Below, in pieces: positions 6,595 to 60,881 of a stretch of 64,000 nt of DNA. Numbering within the stretch: position 1 is the first letter of the stretch; each line of letters begins with the position of its first letter. This stretch comes from an uncultured Chloroflexia bacterium. Its GTDB lineage: Bacteria > Chloroflexota > Anaerolineae > Anaerolineales > Villigracilaceae. The translations under genes and the position numbers were made by a program. Under the pieces are notes generated by a model. That model saw only the letters and a list, made by a program, of their open reading frames with translations, was not told the origin of the DNA and did no database searches. The stretch spans positions 69,828 through 133,827 of the forward strand of contig CAWBTW010000010.1 of assembly GCA_963791785.1 (NCBI GenBank), read 5' to 3'.

Positions 6595-7344
6595 TTACTT
6601 CGGCAGGTGCTCAGCCATCTCGGCCATAGCTGCGTACCGGGCGGCGTATGCTTCCCAACCACGCTGGATTCCGGCGGCTTCTTTCGCTGCAAAGGCTTCG
6701 GCCATAGCTGCATATCGAGCGGTGTAAGCATCCCAGCCACGTTGAACGGTTGTGAACGGTTTGCTCATCGCAGTATATCGAGCAGCATAAGCGTCCCAGC
6801 CGCGCTGGATAGCGGCGGCTTCTTTCGCGGCATAAGCTTCGGCCATGGCTGTGTATCGGGCGGTGTAAGCATCCCAACCACGTTGGATCCCGGCGGCTTC
6901 TTTTGAAGCGAATGCTTCTGCCATGGCATTGTAGCGGGCGGTATAAGCATCCCAGCCACGTTGAACAGTAGTGAATGGTTTGCTCATGGCAGTGTATCGA
7001 GCGGCATAGGCGTTCCAGCCACGCTGGATCCCAGCAGTCTCTTGTGCTGTAAAGGCTACGACCATAGCGTTGTAGCGGGCGGTCTCTGCTTCGCGGGAAC
7101 GCTGGATGTTGGCGCTGGCTGCTTCCTTAGCAGCGAATGCCTGAGCCATGGCAGTGTATCGAGCTGCATAGGCCTCCTGCCCGCGTTGAAGGGTGGGTAC
7201 ACTTGCGGGAGCGGAAGCAGGCAAGGAAAAAGTGGGAAGCGGGGCAATCATAAGGTAACTCAGTACCAAAGCGACTGCCAGGATGATCAGGGCGAATGGA
7301 ATTCGCTTGGTCCATCTATTGACAACGGGTGTATTTGCTGACAT
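6595..7344 (-). CDS. membrane-anchored Ala-rich tandem-repeat protein of unknown function
   Basis: ATG at 7344 is preceded by AAGGAGG. There is an N-terminal TM helix (IPFALIILAVALVLSYLMIAP) followed by 8 repeats of QRGW(D/E)AY(A/T)ARYxAM(AEAFAAKEAAGI or SKPFTTV). Confidence 0.7.
   Translation of the reverse strand: MSANTPVVNRWTKRIPFALIILAVALVLSYLMIAPLPTFSLPASAPASVPTLQRGQEAYAARYTAMAQAFAAKEAASANIQRSREAETARYNAMVVAFTAQETAGIQRGWNAYAARYTAMSKPFTTVQRGWDAYTARYNAMAEAFASKEAAGIQRGWDAYTARYTAMAEAYAAKEAAAIQRGWDAYAARYTAMSKPFTTVQRGWDAYTARYAAMAEAFAAKEAAGIQRGWEAYAARYAAMAEMAEHLPK
6598..7188 (-). repeat. in-frame tandem repeats (21-28 aa units) with a 219-nt higher-order duplication
   Basis: Units 3-5 and units 6-8 are near-identical 73-aa blocks. 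Confidence 0.85.
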
Positions 7345-19082: not shown

Positions 19083-19129
19083 CCCTCACCCCAACCCCTC
19101 TCCCTTAGGGAGAGGGGCAGGGGTGAGGG
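19083..19129. repeat. nested-palindrome repeat element, intergenic copy
   Basis: CCCTCACCCC-AA-CCCCTCTCCC-TTA-GGGAGAGGGG-CA-GGGGTGAGGG, lying between the thiolase stop and the SCP2 start. Confidence 0.85.
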
Positions 19130-40063: not shown

Positions 40064-40147
40064 CCCTCACCCTGGCCCTCTCCCTCAGGGAGAGGGACTT
40101 TGGGTGCAGTTACTCCCTCTCCCATTGGGAGAGGGTAGGGGTGAGGG
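40064..40147. repeat. nested-palindrome repeat element, compound copy
   Basis: Outer arms CCCTCACCC / GGGGTGAGGG enclose two inner hairpins: CCCTCTCCCT-CA-GGGAGAGGG and CCCTCTCCC-ATT-GGGAGAGGG. Confidence 0.85.
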
Positions 40148-49383: not shown

Positions 49384-50025
49384 TCAGGAAGACTTCTCCA
49401 GAACAGAAAGCTCTTCAAAATCCAGGCCTTCCAGCTTGAGAACCTCTTCAAGGTCTTCGGGCAGGTCCAGGTCGAGGCCCAGAGACGGTAAGGTGACTAT
49501 TTCCAACCGAGCGCCGGCCTGCCGGGCCATCTCACAATGGCGTTTGAATGAACCGGGGCCAAAATCATAATCGATCAGGCCAGCCGGGCTGATCAACAAT
49601 GCATTGGTTCCCTCCTCGCGCCGGTCAGGGGCGATCACCACCACCGGTGGTTTTGTGGCATGCTCGACCAGTGTCAGGATGTCATCTTTGGTTATCAAAG
49701 GCAGGTCAGCAGGCAAGACCAGTACCCCCCGAGTAGCATACACTTGTGCCACAACGGTTGCTCGTTCTAATGCAGTATTCAATTGCGGTGAACCAGCCGC
49801 CTCGCGCACCGTCCGTGCTCCATGGTCGCGCGCAAGCGAAAGCGCAGCCGGGTCACGGCTGACAACCAGAATTTGCTCGATTTCTCTCAGGTCTGTCAGG
49901 GTTTTGAGGGTATGTTCCAACAGCAGTTGGTTTAGGTGCGCTCGTTCGTCTTCCGATAAAGTTCCAGCCAGGCGGGACTTGCCGCGCCGTAAAGGTTTTA
50001 CAGGCACAATAGCCCAAAGTGTCAT
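49384..50025 (-). CDS. cofC: 2-phospho-L-lactate / phosphoenolpyruvate guanylyltransferase (CofC/FbiD)
   Basis: Intact 213-aa ORF starting MTLWAIVPVKPLRRGKSRLAG... ATGA overlap with cofD at 50022-50025. Confidence 0.85.
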   Translation of the reverse strand: MTLWAIVPVKPLRRGKSRLAGTLSEDERAHLNQLLLEHTLKTLTDLREIEQILVVSRDPAALSLARDHGARTVREAAGSPQLNTALERATVVAQVYATRGVLVLPADLPLITKDDILTLVEHATKPPVVVIAPDRREEGTNALLISPAGLIDYDFGPGSFKRHCEMARQAGARLEIVTLPSLGLDLDLPEDLEEVLKLEGLDFEELSVLEKSS

Positions 50026-51005
50026 AGAAGTCTCCCAATAAAGTGTAGCACATCTTGTGCCAGTATTGCACGTTTTGTTAAGAGATTCATAAGTGTATCG
50101 GTGGTTAGCGTCGGAATCGCTAACTTTTTTGCAAGCTCAGCATCAATATTATCCAAAACGAAGCCGCTTAGGATATCTTGATAATGTTCCGCAACGGCCA
50201 GCGCTGAGGGCTGGATGCCCAATTCCGCATACATCTTGGCCGCTGGACCTTTGACTGTTTCTCCGCCGATGATGGGGGATACGGCGACGACTGGGTTTCC
50301 CTCACCCCTTCGCCCCTCTCCCTGAGGGAGATGGGTTGGGGTGAGGGAGAGAATCGCTAAAATCGGATCGATACTCACCCAGGGATTCGACGGGCAGATC
50401 ACAATCGCATCGGCTGCCTCTATCGCTTCAACCGCGCCCGGGGCTGCTTCCGCTGTATCGATACCTTCAAAGCGAAAGCCCCTCACCTTCGGCTCACACC
50501 TACGATGGACGAAGTATTCCTGAAAGGCCAACTCACCTTCATCCGTCTCGACAATTGTCCGCACCGGTTGATCGGACATAGGTAAAACGGTTGGCTCAAT
50601 GCTCCAGGCTTTGCAGAAATCACGCGTGATTTGTGAAAGGGTCTGGCCTTCCTGCATCCGTCGTGTGCGTTCAAGATGGGTGCCCAAATCCTGATCGCCC
50701 AGGTTGAACCAATCCGGGCCGCCAAGCGCTTTTGCGTTTTCGATGGCACCCCATGTTTCGTTCTTACGCCCCCAGCCTGTTTCGGGATTTGCCAGTCCCG
50801 CCAGTGTGTAGCAAACCGTGTCCAGATCGGGCGAGATGTACAGGCCATAGTGTTCAAAGTCATCGCCGGTATTGACGATGACGGTCAGGTTTTCAGGGGG
50901 CAGGATTTGGGCCAGTCCGTGAGCGAGCTTTGCGCCGCCCACGCCGCCAGCCAATGCGACGATCTTTGGACGGCTGACGATAGACGATGGACGATGATTG
51001 CTCAT
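50022..51005 (-). CDS. cofD: 2-phospho-L-lactate transferase (CofD/FbiA)
   Basis: Intact 327-aa ORF with ..IVALAGGVGGAKLAHGL.., ..CPSNPWVSIDPILA.. and ..VVAVSPIIGG... It contains the repeat element at 50299-50347 in frame. Confidence 0.85.
   Translation of the reverse strand: MSNHRPSSIVSRPKIVALAGGVGGAKLAHGLAQILPPENLTVIVNTGDDFEHYGLYISPDLDTVCYTLAGLANPETGWGRKNETWGAIENAKALGGPDWFNLGDQDLGTHLERTRRMQEGQTLSQITRDFCKAWSIEPTVLPMSDQPVRTIVETDEGELAFQEYFVHRRCEPKVRGFRFEGIDTAEAAPGAVEAIEAADAIVICPSNPWVSIDPILAILSLTPTHLPQGEGRRGEGNPVVAVSPIIGGETVKGPAAKMYAELGIQPSALAVAEHYQDILSGFVLDNIDAELAKKLAIPTLTTDTLMNLLTKRAILAQDVLHFIGRLL
50299..50347. repeat. nested-palindrome repeat element, intragenic copy inside cofD
   Basis: CCCTCACCCC-TTCG-CCCCTCTCCC-TGA-GGGAGATGGG-TT-GGGGTGAGGG, translated on the minus strand as SLTPTHLPQGEGRRGEG. 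Confidence 0.85.
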
Positions 51006-51409
51006 TGCTGGTCTACCGCAATGTAAAAAGCGTCTTCTTCCCGAACGCCAGATGGATTAAGAGCTTTTCGGAAGGCTTGAAGCTTTTTAGCCAGAGTCTG
51101 TGCTTGTTTATCTGCTTCATTGAAAAGCGTGGGATCCTTCAGATATTTTCTTCGATGGATGATTCGTTGACAGGCAAATGTTTCAATTAAGGATCGGACC
51201 GCCATACCAAGAAACCGATTTTGTTCTGCGTCACTTTGTCCAGTTGATCCCTCGGCAATGTTCAGGGCAATTGATGTTGCGGCGCGAGTTAGTTGGGATT
51301 TGAGATTGTAGTTTTCGCTAGCGGGAAGCTTGTGGGCTATTTCATACATCAAATCAATATACTCCAAGGATAGCTGCCATACATCTAACCGTTCAAATTT
51401 AAAAGTCAC
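51002..51409 (-). CDS. four-helix-bundle protein (23S rRNA intervening-sequence protein family)
   Basis: Intact 135-aa ORF: MTFKFERLDVWQLSLEYIDLMYEI..LTRAATSIALNIAEGS..FLGMAVRSLIE... ATGA overlap with cofD at 51002-51005. A sampled line is about 42% GC against about 65% in cofD. Confidence 0.75.
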   Translation of the reverse strand: MTFKFERLDVWQLSLEYIDLMYEIAHKLPASENYNLKSQLTRAATSIALNIAEGSTGQSDAEQNRFLGMAVRSLIETFACQRIIHRRKYLKDPTLFNEADKQAQTLAKKLQAFRKALNPSGVREEDAFYIAVDQQ

Positions 51410-51466
51410 CTTGCCTCCTTGAATTTAATCGGATTAAAATCACGTTCTATAGTCCACCGTCTACGG

Positions 51467-53048: not shown

Positions 53049-53407
53049 TTTTGTTCCTTGGGGTTTGGAATGTAAAGATAGCGCATGAAATCAGGGATGA
53101 AATCGATGATCACTTTTACATCATCATCTGTGCAGCCGAGCAACAGCTTGATCTCAGCGTCGCGGTCAACTGTATCATACGTGCATAAGATTCCTGTAAG
53201 CGCGCGCCCTTCTTGGGAGCCGATCCAGACATCGATGCCATCCCCATCTGCGGCAAGCGTGCCCTCCACATAGCCGTAGTCAAACGGATAGATCAACTCT
53301 GGAAAACGTGGATGGGCTTCGCCACGCGGTCTGTCTATGACGATGGGCCTGCTGACCACTAAATCGGCCATTTCGTCCCAAAAAGCTTTTCCCGTTAAAT
53401 CTGTCAT
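53045..53407 (-). CDS. small inorganic-pyrophosphatase-like protein
   Basis: ..YPFDYGYVEGTLAADGDGIDVWI.. (a family I PPase-like acidic motif). Start MTDLTGK (ATG 53407) forms an ATGA overlap with the cofE stop. Confidence 0.55.
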   Translation of the reverse strand: MTDLTGKAFWDEMADLVVSRPIVIDRPRGEAHPRFPELIYPFDYGYVEGTLAADGDGIDVWIGSQEGRALTGILCTYDTVDRDAEIKLLLGCTDDDVKVIIDFIPDFMRYLYIPNPKEQK

Positions 53408-54156
53408 CTGAATAAATCCTGTTCTTTTGGGCGCAGGAGTTCGCACAAATTTCCATTCCGCAGCGGATACGGAAATCCACGCACGTGGACGGCGGGTGTG
53501 CCCTCGGCGGCCTGTCCCATCATCAGGGATGCGGCTCCGGCCAACTCGTCCGCTGCACCGACCTGGGTGATTTGCAAGGTGCGCCCGAAGAGATCAGGGT
53601 CACCCCGCAGGTCAACCAGGCCGGGCATCCCGGCGACACCGATGGATGTGCCAACAGTGCCTTCGCGCCAGGCACGTCCATGTGAGTCGATAATGAGTAC
53701 CCCAATGTCGCTTCCCGTTGCCTTCTCGATTTTTTGTCGAAGTTCTTCGGCAGAGCGGTCGGGGTTTTCGGGGAGGAGTAAGACTGAATTCTCATCACCT
53801 ACGTTTGATTGATCGATGCCCGCATTGGCACATACAAATCCCAACTTGTGCTCGACGATGATCGCGCCCGGCCTAACGCGCAGGATTTCATTACTCTCTT
53901 GCAGGATCAATTCCACAACACGCGGATCTTTCTCACTTTGGCCTGCCAGTTCCAATGCTTTTTCGGAAGGTGCGATGGTCTTCAAGGCCATCATCCGTCC
54001 TTCGGCTTTGGAGACGATTTTTTGGGCAAGCACCAGGATGTCGCCATCTTGGATTTGGATGGATGTGTAGTGCAGAGATTTGACAAGAACATCCGCCAGG
54101 TTGTCACCTTGGCGGATGAAGGGGATGGATTTGAGGGGGGTTAGGACGAGTGACAT
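53404..54156 (-). CDS. cofE: coenzyme F420-0:L-glutamate ligase (CofE)
   Basis: Intact 250-aa ORF with ..GDILVLAQKIVSKAEGR.. and ..GFVCANAGIDQSNV... Confidence 0.85.
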   Translation of the reverse strand: MSLVLTPLKSIPFIRQGDNLADVLVKSLHYTSIQIQDGDILVLAQKIVSKAEGRMMALKTIAPSEKALELAGQSEKDPRVVELILQESNEILRVRPGAIIVEHKLGFVCANAGIDQSNVGDENSVLLLPENPDRSAEELRQKIEKATGSDIGVLIIDSHGRAWREGTVGTSIGVAGMPGLVDLRGDPDLFGRTLQITQVGAADELAGAASLMMGQAAEGTPAVHVRGFPYPLRNGNLCELLRPKEQDLFR

Positions 54157-54979: not shown

Positions 54980-57608
54980 TCAGGCCAATCCAAATTGTTG
55001 CGGGTCGGGAAGTTTTACTCCGCTTGCGGCTAACTCGCACAGAACGAGGAAGACGGCTTCGCGCAGTTTGGGATCATCCCGATACATGGCATGGTACAGG
55101 TTGGTGATCACACCTTCGGTGGGCATGCGTTTAAGATATGGCAGCGCAGCCAGACGCTCCTCTTCACTGCCGTTCTTGAGGGCGGTCAACAAAACTTCTG
55201 TGGCTGGCGACCCGGGTGAAATGCCCACCCCTTGTTGGCCAGCAAATTCGATCAGCCAGGGCGTTTCGGATGGCGCTGTCAAGGGGCGCGGTATGCGCGG
55301 ATCTATCACATCTTTGCTTTCGAGCACTTCGCTGGCCGAATTGCGCACAACCCATTGGTCATCTTCCACTTGAATGGTTTGCAAGGCTTCAGTTGCCCAC
55401 TCATCCTCGACGCGAGCGAGACCATAGATAACAGCGCGGCGCAGCAGGATATCGGCCAGTGCCATGCCTTCCTTGAGCATGTCGTGCCCTTCATTCGGGT
55501 CATTTGCCAGTGCTTCGGCTGCAGCACGACGCAAATCTTCTTCTCCATGCAACAGGGCGCGGGCTACGGACTCCATGGCGGGGCCTGTCCCGATGGCAAC
55601 CAATGCTAGGCAGCCTGCCTGTTGCGCAGAAACACTGGGGGCGTGGAGGGTGCTGGAAAGAAACTCTATCGCTTTTGAGTCGTGAACTGCCCCGCTGCCA
55701 AGCGCAGCCAATTGGATCAGTTCAAAAGATGTGGTTCGCAAAAACTGGCGGAAGAGCGGCGCAGCACCAGGGTCTCCGCTCCAGTAAAAGGCTGAAACAG
55801 CCTGTGCCCGCAACGCAAGCGGAATACTATCCGTCTGCAGCAAGCCTGCCAGCAGCGCAAATATTTTGCCACGCCAGGGGGCTTCACGAGGCGCATCGCG
55901 CAGCCAGCGTGCCGCACTGAAAAGCGGTTGGTGCAGAGGCATTTCCGATTGTCTCAACATGGCATCTGCCAGACCAGATGCATCACCATGTGCAGCGATA
56001 TAACGCATTGCCAGTAGTTTTCCGGACCAATCCGGTTGTTCGAGCAGTGTTTCATCCATGTTGATGGCGGCCATGGCGCTTCCAGCCAGGAACCCGCCAA
56101 AGACAGGGTGCACAAACCGCAGACGGTTGCCAGAGTGCGATGTTAACAGGCCGCTGTCGGTCATTTTCGCCAGCAATCTGGATGTGGCAGTAAGTGGGCC
56201 TGTTCCACCACCGAGCGGACCTGTTCTACCGAGTGGCCCGGTTCTACCAAGTGGCCCCGTCCTGCCAAGCGGGCCTGTTCTCCCTTTCCTCTTGAGCCGC
56301 CCGGTTTTGGGCTTCTCATTATCCGGGGTTTCGGGATTGCCTTCTTCATCTTCTTCGACTTCAACATCTTCTTCTTCGGGAAGTTCAAAATTCTTTACCC
56401 AATCGCGGGCCGAGCGCGAATCAAAGATGGATTGTGCGGATAGCGCCACTTGCATTCCCAGGGTTTCGAGGGCTGCCAGGGGGGTGCCGCTGGGGGCCAG
56501 GCGGCGAATGTGGGTTGCGATAGCGTCCAAAATATCAGGGCCTAAACTGTCGCCTGCATAACCAGCCCATACTTTAAGTGTGAGTTCCAGGGGGGTGAGT
56601 GTTTGGTTATCCGTATTCAGCCAGGTGTTGATGAGTAAAGGATCGATCTCTTCCAGGTTGTTTTGCGCCCAGGTTTCAACTGCAACTGTCTGGGACCAAA
56701 GCTGACCCCAATTTTCGATGAAATTGTCGCACTGGCTGGATTTCCAGGGCATCAATGTGACGGGCTCAAAACCGAGACCAGTAAGGCCATCAAGTTGTTC
56801 TGGGCAAGCTGTTGCCACAACATGGGTTTCTGGATAAGCTTTGAGCAAGGCTTTTAAGGTAGTTGGAAACTTTGGCTTGCTCGTTGGGAGATAATTCATC
56901 AAACCCGTCAAGCAGCAAAAGTGCTTGGCCACTGCTGAAAGTGTATTGGATGAAGTTGGGCAAGCGTGTCACATCCCGGATAGGCGCGTGTTCAGCAGCT
57001 GTATCCTGGATAGGGGATAAGATATCTTTCGTATCGCCCTCTGGCAAACGCAATTCTGCAATGTGGTAGAGGAAGGGGACGCTTTCACTCAGTGTCCCCA
57101 GTTGCGGATCACGATTGGCAGCCAGGGAAGCTAAATAAGCCAATGCAACCGTTTTTCCTGTACCAGGTTGACCCGTAACAATCAAATTAGTTCCGCCAGC
57201 AAGGGCTTGGGGCAAACTCAAGTTGGGCGCATGATAGATGGCTGCCAGTTCCGGCCAGGCTGGCATATAAGGGAGCGTTCTGGCAACGATGTCTTCAGTT
57301 AGAAGCGGTTCCCCGGGAGCCTGTCGAACAGGGGGAGCCAGTAGACGAGGTGTTTCAACAATCTCATCTAGCGCAAAAAGTGGAGCTGCTAAATGCATGC
57401 CCTGCGCGCGGCGCAAGGTGATACGCCGGTGGTTTTCCTCTACGCCGGTGGAGCGACGTGCTTTAGCCTCTTCACGGTTTTGTGCCCAGTTTGCCCGGAT
57501 TTCGCTCCAAAGCGGACGCATGCGCCCCATCAACCACCAAAAGATCGTGGCGGTGATAAAGCCGACCAGGAAAGAGAAGGTTTCTAAGGAAAAAGAAGAC
57601 AAAGACAT
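54980..57608 (-). pseudogene. TM-anchored NACHT-like STAND NTPase with C-terminal HEAT repeats, with one frame disruption near 56850-56930
   Basis: Start MSLSSFSLETFSFLVGFITATIFWWL (ATG 57608). Walker A GQPGTGKT. Walker B / NACHT signature LLLLDGFDEL. The C-terminal 400 aa are HEAT/PBS-lyase-like (..EDLRRAAAEALAN..). Fragments 56790-57713 and 54980-56932. Confidence 0.7.
56192..56284 (-). repeat. 18-nt in-frame tandem repeat encoding (GRTGPL)x4 plus GGGTGPL
   Basis: Plus-strand units are gagcggacctgttctacc, gagtggcccggttctacc, aagtggccccgtcctgcc and aagcgggcctgttctccc. The encoded peptides are identical while the DNA differs at synonymous positions. Confidence 0.85.
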
Positions 57609-60836: not shown

Positions 60837-60881
60837 CCGAAGATAAGGGTGGCGGGCGACGCCCGCCACCCTTATCTTCGG
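60837..60881. other. 45-nt perfect palindrome in the ctaA / proline dehydrogenase divergent region
   Basis: CCGAAGATAAGGGTGGCGGGCG-A-CGCCCGCCACCCTTATCTTCGG (22-nt arms). Confidence 0.85.

Follow-up and report, generated by a model that had tools for sequence, protein, structure and literature searches.

Although known for 30 years, the short palindromic repeats named BoxC, PIT or TM_ECO have, to our knowledge, been given neither a function nor a mechanism of spread, and they have been regarded as confined to intergenic DNA. The present study deals with a nested palindrome of 49 nt which is assigned to this family and lies in frame within cofD, the gene for 2-phospho-L-lactate transferase, at positions 50299-50347 of a 64 kb stretch of DNA (the window, i.e. 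the whole stretch that was analysed) from a metagenome-assembled genome (MAG) of the Anaerolineales (Chloroflexota).

Descriptions of the BoxC family (Bachellier et al.; Hoyne et al. 2000) concern Proteobacteria and cyanobacteria, and the motif formerly called BoxC and PIT is now termed TM_ECO, an intrastrand triplex motif (Holder et al. 2015, PMC4666352). It follows the pattern CCCTCNCCC N3-6 GGGNGAGGG N3 GGGNGAGGG, in which one stem mismatch is tolerated. The census comprises 3610 copies in 262 proteobacterial genomes, with 23 copies in Escherichia coli K-12 that are 'always located intergenically' (PMC4666352). Five pairs are inverted, small local deletions are associated with the motif while the hairpin is preserved, and neither promoter nor terminator activity nor an in-vivo triplex footprint was found (PMC4666352). 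The HPG1/HPG2 motifs, described as switches between a G-quadruplex (G4) and a hairpin, represent the same E. coli loci as BoxC, 'none within' open reading frames (ORFs) (Kaplan et al. 2016, PMC5100583). In vitro, E. coli oligonucleotides of the family form a triplex or a G4 (PMC4666352, PMC5100583).

A BoxC-type palindrome in the window

The copy in cofD reads CCCTCACCCC-TTCG-CCCCTCTCCC-TGA-GGGAGATGGG-TT-GGGGTGAGGG on the plus strand. It begins with an outer arm (50299-50308) and the spacer TTCG, continues with the two strands of an inner stem (50313-50322 and 50326-50335) around the loop TGA, and ends with the spacer TT and the second outer arm (50338-50347). The two 10-nt outer arms pair perfectly, and one mismatch occurs in the inner stem; the double inverted repeat is thus present with the same letters as the original prediction had given. 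In the following, the C-rich arm CCCTCACCC is designated L, the hairpin CCCTCTCCC-loop-GGGAGAGGG is designated I and the G-rich arm GGGTGAGGG is designated R, so that the cofD copy represents a palindromic L-I-R form on the minus strand.

Two further copies, which had been reported as intergenic, are both located between genes. The first one (19083-19129, 47 nt, spacers AA/CA) lies between the stop codon of a thiolase-like gene and the next start codon. The second one (40064-40147), upstream of the start codon of an ABC ATPase gene, is a composite with two inner hairpins, made up of an L-I half (40064-40096), an 18-nt spacer and an I-R half (40115-40147). The window therefore holds three loci with four half-units in 64 kb, against none expected from shuffles, and the pattern CCCTCACCCC N10-40 GGGGTGAGGG has two matches in the window versus 0.00 expected (100 dinucleotide shuffles). 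Predicted RNA hairpins of the window copies reach -38.5 to -66.5 kcal/mol (z = -3.9 to -6.8). A G4 as the dominant RNA fold was rejected because ViennaRNA with G4 folding on gives -38.5 kcal/mol for the hairpin of the cofD copy and -8.4 kcal/mol for a G4 formed by the G-rich half alone.

The family was found through a full-text literature search for the arm sequences, and the window copies agree with the E. coli sequences in Table 1 of PMC4666352. The strict TM_ECO pattern, including the 3-nt second loop, occurs at 40064-40096 (minus strand) and 40115-40147 (plus strand). The copy at 19083-19129 fits a relaxed pattern with a 4-nt second loop on both strands, and the cofD copy fits with one mismatch and a 6-nt second loop. 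Since the window copies match TM_ECO on both strands, the nested palindrome can be read as two inverted BoxC units that share one hairpin. On sequence grounds, the 49-nt string belongs to the BoxC/PIT/TM_ECO family in a palindromic double form. The earlier statement that the motif has no named equivalent was mistaken, for it is the one called BoxC, PIT, TM_ECO or HPGQ (PMC4666352, PMC5100583).

The window copies share with the described repeats the same blocks in the same order (CCCTCNCCC, loop, GGGNGAGGG, short loop, GGGNGAGGG). The known family occurs in inverted palindromic pairs as well, and it shows small deletions that retain the hairpin, as do the cofD derivatives treated below. In contrast, the cofD copy is found in Chloroflexota, its halves are fused round one hairpin (L-I-R, 47-49 nt) and it stands in frame. 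Furthermore, the second loop has 4-6 nt here instead of the published 3, and the cofD copy requires one mismatch. Unlike the E. coli copies, the cofD copy is not intergenic but lies within a coding sequence; intergenic location is a trait of those copies and no structural criterion of the family. Like HPG1/HPG2, the element has a four-G-tract half after a complementary C-rich tract, as the cofD mRNA carries GGGAGAGGGGCGAAGGGGUGAGGG downstream of its complement. However, the published HPG motifs flank ORFs, and the predicted cofD hairpin is far more stable than the G4.

A cross-genome scan for L plus I, with one genome per GTDB species, gave at least 120 stretches against a rough chance estimate of ~0.03. 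Among the matches listed are Pseudomonas, Xanthomonas, Acinetobacter, Enterobacteriaceae, Alpha- and Betaproteobacteria, Planctomycetota and Acidobacteriota as well as Verrucomicrobiota, a Bifidobacterium MAG, Leptolyngbya, Omnitrophica, Caldithrix and several Chloroflexota; none of the scan loci derived from the source genome of the window. More copies, as had been predicted, thus exist both in the window and, by this pattern scan, in other genomes, and the BoxC family reaches well past the Proteobacteria. An Rfam scan of the whole window at gathering threshold returned no family, and literature searches gave nothing on such repeats in Anaerolineae.

The behaviour of the element had been likened to that of Rickettsia palindromic elements (RPEs), which is fair as a description of behaviour only. 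RPEs are likewise palindromic repeats that stand in frame in protein genes of different kinds, at surface sites where function is preserved, and decay later. However, they comprise 100-150 bp, are confined to Rickettsia and appear to be unrelated in sequence, whereas the element treated here has 47-49 nt and belongs to a cross-phylum family. Membership was rejected for a 49-nt element in an Anaerolineales MAG by way of the RPE description, not by a comparison with their consensus.

The loops of CofD and CofE

The element-bearing cofD gene (50022-51005, minus strand) is intact and encodes 327 amino acids (aa). The protein is identified by Pfam PF01933 (4e-45), by the NCBIfam equivalog TIGR01819 (307.6 bits, cutoff 257), by its sequence similarity to the CofD of M. 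mazei (3c3d, E = 3e-61) and by its fold, and it retains all residues that are invariant in the family. The cofC gene (49384-50025, minus strand) overlaps the cofD stop codon and forms the operon context of the element-bearing mRNA; cofE and other F420-related genes sit upstream of cofD. On the minus strand the element encodes CofD residues 220-236 (SLTPTHLPQGEGRRGEG). It is read through as ..ILSLTPTHLPQGEGRRGEGNP.. between the flanking blocks SNPWVSIDPILA and VVAVSPIIGG, and stop codons are absent from two of the three frames in its coding orientation. That the element lies in frame within an otherwise intact CofD ORF was confirmed by the open frame and the TIGR01819/PF01933 match. The corresponding tryptic peptide of the window CofD would end with ...LSLTPTHLPQGEGR.

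An AlphaFold2 model of the window CofD, built with 68 homologues (pTM 0.83), superposes on 3c3d, 3c3e and 3cgw with TM values of 0.81-0.87. It shows a helix at residues 213-219, a coil at 220-238 and the next strand at 239-242, with pLDDT below 50 at 223-234. In this model the insert is a low-confidence surface coil in place of the helix end, which bears on the earlier question of whether the insert is a surface loop.

The window CofD also has an N-terminal extension, MSNHRPSSIVSRP, that derives from another repeat. A gene of the 23S-rRNA-IVP family (ORF 51002-51409, minus strand) is inserted between the nitroreductase gene and cofD and has an imperfect inverted repeat of the type CTATAGTCCACCGTC (11/13) on either side, at 50976-50996 and 51447-51466. 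The downstream repeat provides the cofD start codon together with the extension MSNHRPSSIVSRP.

Across the element site, M. mazei CofD and M. smegmatis FbiA both read ...SIGPIxxxPGxRxxLxxxxVVAVSPIIG. This canonical 33-residue segment with AVPGIRxALxxK occurs in both proteins and in almost all metagenomic relatives at 59-66% identity. The window protein has 20 codons (ILSLTPTHLPQGEGRRGEGN) in place of 11 ancestral ones (VAGMRKAIKAK in the closest relative), so that the event was a replacement and not a clean insertion. Judged from these orthologues, the element is a secondary arrival in cofD and the insert is derived. Accordingly, the alignment shows the lineage-specific replacement or extension of the loop that had been predicted. 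The notion of the repeat as extra peptide stands for its in-frame accommodation and falls for a plain addition, as ancestral codons were replaced.

Of the 120 closest CofD proteins (75-86% identity), loops derived from BoxC are found in about 32 and canonical ones in only 33. Another ~52 (about 43%) carry a different repeat-derived loop, ..LRSTVHRPPS.., with the same motif as the repeats that flank the IVP gene next to cofD; this is a second repeat family that colonises the same CofD loop. A further 16-residue insertion, PILSRRAELAELGVEG, was seen beside the HRP-type repeat in the CofD loop at L006:10001-11011 and also in P0013 and P0023, and it probably represents a third repeat family.

The forms of the BoxC-derived loop were read from the DNA of 7 looked-up contigs and 80 metagenome loci (L numbers; WIN, the window allele). 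Full L-I-R copies with the spacers AA/CGAA are present in WIN, L002 and L007. In L163 and L003 the element is inverted in place, with the spacers TTCG/TT or TTCG/GT, and is read as LTPSPLSLRERGWGEG. L129 and L131 have L-I only. In L132 and L139 the element consists of I-R alone with a 3-nt spacer; it is read in another frame (GEGKGVR) and joins VVA directly, and decayed relatives of this form are found in L135, L136 and L149. Other junctions, which represent separate events, occur in distant clades, namely in L185, where the element follows an intact AVPGIREA, and in L169. From this comparison the CofD loop emerges as a recurrent hotspot with at least four classes of junction, spacer and frame.

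A similar situation is found in CofE. In other lineages an in-frame I-R element directly follows CANAGIDHSNV (L130, L172 and L192, with variants in L003, L004 and L131), and the BoxC half-units (SPLPEGEGLGMRE and similar) are located at L130:1559-1593, L172:947-984, L192:2570-2604 and L004:7801-7821. In the window, the loop at this site is 'empty' and reads SNVGDENSV (53782-53808 in the ORF 53404-54156, minus strand). Certain protein loops are thus colonised repeatedly and provide a natural series of filled, empty, inverted and half forms in which the dynamics of the element can be followed.

Acquisition, decay and rival explanations

We regard it as probable that the cofD element is a young, laterally acquired BoxC repeat in a permissive loop, which is predicted to be retained in the mRNA and translated, is filtered for frame and stop codons, inverts, loses arms and decays, and has no catalytic role. 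On entry it would have taken the place of about 9-11 codons where the helix after the SNP motif ends. Kept in the mRNA, the element would be translated as a disordered surface loop of 17-20 residues rich in Pro, Gly and Glu. Only stop-free, frame-preserving copies survive in a needed gene, and the in-frame state therefore reflects a selection filter and not design. As to the mode of acquisition, we infer very short-patch gene conversion from another element-bearing cofD allele or, alternatively, direct insertion; later changes would comprise inversion between the outer arms, loss of one arm and point decay. Most likely, the element is a neutral or slightly deleterious passenger, its neutrality being deduced rather than seen.

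The relationships of the alleles point to such a recent arrival. In 200 bootstrap resamplings of the CofD protein outside the loop, the nearest relative of an element-bearing allele was one that lacks the element: L153 for L002 (193/200), L144 for L131 (165/200), L134 for L129 (196/200; 92% aa identity) and L001/L128 for WIN (176/200). Among WIN, L002 and L007, 88-94% of the third codon positions in the element are identical, compared with 43-58% in the remainder of the gene (Fisher p = 6e-5 to 1.5e-3). In sliding windows, element-bearing alleles are closer to each other than to their sisters only within ~100 nt of the loop, and long recombination tracts were rejected because the switch in similarity is confined to this region. 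The cofD copies have common spacers (AA/CGAA or, inverted, TTCG/TT), unlike the other copies in the window. In addition, the window allele has ATT CTC before the element, as in RVL-type alleles, where its sisters have GTA GCA. Flank and spacer together fit a very short-patch conversion from allele to allele.

The copies also show signs of decay. Forms without the left arm, forms without the right arm and degenerate forms exist. Stem substitutions are uncompensated in the inner stem of WIN and in the outer arms of L007, L163 and L003, which indicates that the copies are decaying and are not maintained as structures. Structure-preserving covariation was rejected for the stems, since the arms hardly vary and the few substitutions disrupt pairing. 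Seeding by proto-arm microhomology, in which the canonical loop would already resemble a G-arm, was rejected as well: canonical CofE loops match the arms as the composition-shuffled null does (mean 6.48 for both), and perfect proto-arm matches are isolated (L002 CofE, L197 CofD).

Several observations weigh against a laterally spreading repeat of this kind. Neither a transposase nor a target-site duplication nor any other signature of insertion was detected, and no direct duplications flank the three window copies or the filled sites in cofD, although inverted ends are present. In 583 kb of related F420-cluster loci nearly all such hairpins lie in the cofD/cofE loops, and intergenic DNA yielded none. 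Such confinement is odd for a repeat that inserts at random and mostly between genes, and site-specific spread or selection may account for it. Moreover, alleles of different clades may share identical junctions and spacers through constraint and not through transfer.

Selection is the core of the alternative that the element is kept for its nucleic-acid structure, either as an mRNA hairpin/G4 switch tuning the cofD-cofC message or as a DNA triplex or cruciform promoting recombination. The identity at synonymous positions, which is much higher in the element than in the rest of the gene, the recurrence at the same loop and in the neighbouring cofE together with the absence from the rest of the 583 kb, and the very stable hairpin (-38.5 kcal/mol) are all in line with such a role. 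The G-rich half is a canonical G4 motif, and the corresponding E. coli oligonucleotides fold in vitro (PMC4666352, PMC5100583). However, the nearest relatives keep cofD without the element, many copies are half-deleted or decayed with pair-breaking substitutions uncompensated, and the published tests were negative for promoter, terminator and in-vivo triplex footprint. The hairpin also outcompetes the G4 by the energies given above. A structural role is considered unlikely.

Another explanation would be a single ancient insertion in the ancestor of the Anaerolineales clade, followed by vertical descent with many deletions, the identity of the copies being due to sequence constraint. The full copies do share the codon junction, the length of 49 nt and the CGAA/TTCG spacer, the arm-loss derivatives are plausible as deletions of the full form, and the family sequence is conserved even between phyla. 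Yet the closest relatives of the window allele carry canonical AVAGMRKAIEAK loops, which could not be regenerated after a replacement. Likewise, the 29-residue loops (RVIxKIxKP) that are uniform in many lineages are not simple deletion products, and the four or more junction/spacer/frame classes include L185 and L169 in distant clades. Such a single origin is therefore quite unlikely.

An adaptive peptide, i.e. a Pro/Gly/Glu-rich loop mediating an interaction such as that of CofD with CofE, is very improbable. The consecutive F420 enzymes CofD and CofE both have SPLPxGEGxGVR-type loops in some lineages, but frames and orientations vary so that unrelated peptides result (PLPQGEGRRGEG, PLSLRERGWGEG, PLPLGEGKGVR), and the same peptides turn up in unrelated enzymes. 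The pLDDT of the insert is low, and the window genome combines the CofD insert with an empty CofE loop. Finally, a chimeric join at the repeat during assembly or binning, conceivable for a MAG in which repeats can mislead assemblers, is negligible in view of the collinear, in-frame cofD flanks and of the same arrangement in many independent assemblies (JGI, ENA, NCBI, Logan).

In-frame copies in other proteins and DUF559 genes

BoxC-type copies were also found in frame in Pfam-confirmed proteins of the cross-phylum loci. They occur in an NAD-dependent DNA ligase (LigA) of the Planctomycetota (L067:3173-6157, minus strand), in YgiQ-type radical SAM proteins (L111:232-2616 and L018:1361-3151, one of them from Anaerolineales), in an IcmF-like fused mutase of the Acidobacteriota with two copies in the linker (L015:2926-6423) and in a methionyl-tRNA synthetase (MetRS, L023). 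In view of these cross-phylum loci the 'always intergenic' rule is specific to E. coli, and BoxC-type repeats may be translated within housekeeping enzymes. Peptides such as PLPxGEGxGEG, LSLRERGWGEG and GEGxGVR in proteins are repeat-derived, which calls for caution in annotation, alignment and structure prediction. While the family itself is known, the recurrent, allele-hopping in-frame copies in cofD and cofE, the in-frame copies across phyla and the association with DUF559 genes are new.

The insertion in the L023 MetRS consists of a complete DUF559 domain between I-R and L-I, with the whole unit in frame. DUF559 (Vsr-like endonuclease) genes were searched by tblastn and a small HMM over ~1.5 Mb of fetched DNA. 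They were found in five of the 120 scan loci listed, i.e. L023:1777-4515, L047:5548-5994, L054:5101-5505 and L020:923-1309 (all on the minus strand) and weakly L051:7167-7817. Neither method detected any elsewhere in the ~1.5 Mb, nor in the window or the cofD loci. All five genes lie less than 200 nt from an element, with ~5% of the sequence being that close. The four strong loci share one geometry: hairpin-GGGTGAGGG (I-R), the gene, and CCCTCACCC-hairpin (L-I). The same I-R...L-I geometry, with a filler of 16 nt, is known from the BoxC pairs of E. coli (PMC4666352). In E. coli K-12 the DUF559 gene ycjD (L208, 1351039-1351828) terminates in CACCCTCTCCCTGAAAGAGCGAGGGGG, and a partial duplication of its 3' end as well as a BoxC copy ~150 nt downstream are present. 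Many DUF559 orthologues of Acinetobacter end with ...KNTSP*, encoded by ACCTCTCCCTAA. Both ycjD and these orthologues stop within a BoxC half-unit of the kind that brackets the DUF559 genes. The protein search for DUF559 gave almost only relatives from Acinetobacter and E. coli, so that this association was tested in just two clades. Literature searches returned no paper connecting DUF559 and BoxC.

These data are suggestive of, and do not prove, a role of DUF559 as the mobilising enzyme of the BoxC family. A possible if doubtful extension is that the BoxC-type elements are the inverted ends or gene-less miniatures of a DUF559 cassette, which would spread in a homing-like manner by break-induced gene conversion. 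Such a cassette would explain the near-identity across phyla, the patchy alleles at the cofD/cofE loops, the tolerance of in-frame copies and the 'instability' in E. coli. If true, the link would supply a candidate mobilising enzyme together with a testable mechanism.

Similar arrangements are known from other mobile repeats. Miniature transposable elements with inverted repeats (MITEs) and homing cassettes are comparable insofar as some loci have a small endonuclease gene between inverted ends, and gene-less miniatures exist elsewhere. A further likeness is that presence at a single site in a conserved gene is patchy between close relatives and that the co-converted flanks are very short. They differ in that no target-site duplication and no splicing (as by an intein or intron) is seen here. 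DUF559 is the only candidate partner. REP/REPIN sequences, which RAYT transposases mobilise, and palindromes tagged with GTAG or CGTC (PMC3733652) are likewise short, GC-rich imperfect palindromes, single or in inverted doublets, mostly extragenic and present in high copy, but the partner gene here is DUF559 (Vsr-like PD-(D/E)xK) and not an IS200/IS605-type Y1 transposase. Membership in the REP/REPIN-RAYT system was rejected, as the element ends with CCCT.../...AGGG and has no GTAG or CGTC head. A RAYT gene was not seen near any copy, though no systematic RAYT search was made.

Other repeats of the window concern different genes. A large ORF in a HEAT/NACHT neighbourhood (54980-56932, minus strand) contains the tandem peptide GRTGPL four to five times at ~56200-56330, with a DNA period of 18 nt. 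The repeat finder reported a tandem array at 6620-7190 with a spacing of 63/78 nt and a higher-order unit of 219 nt at 80% identity, which probably encodes a repeat-domain protein. A perfect palindrome of 22+22 nt (CCGAAGATAAGGGTGGCGGGCG / CGCCCGCCACCCTTATCTTCGG) around a 1-nt loop is present at 60837-60881; its sequence is unrelated to the BoxC-type element.

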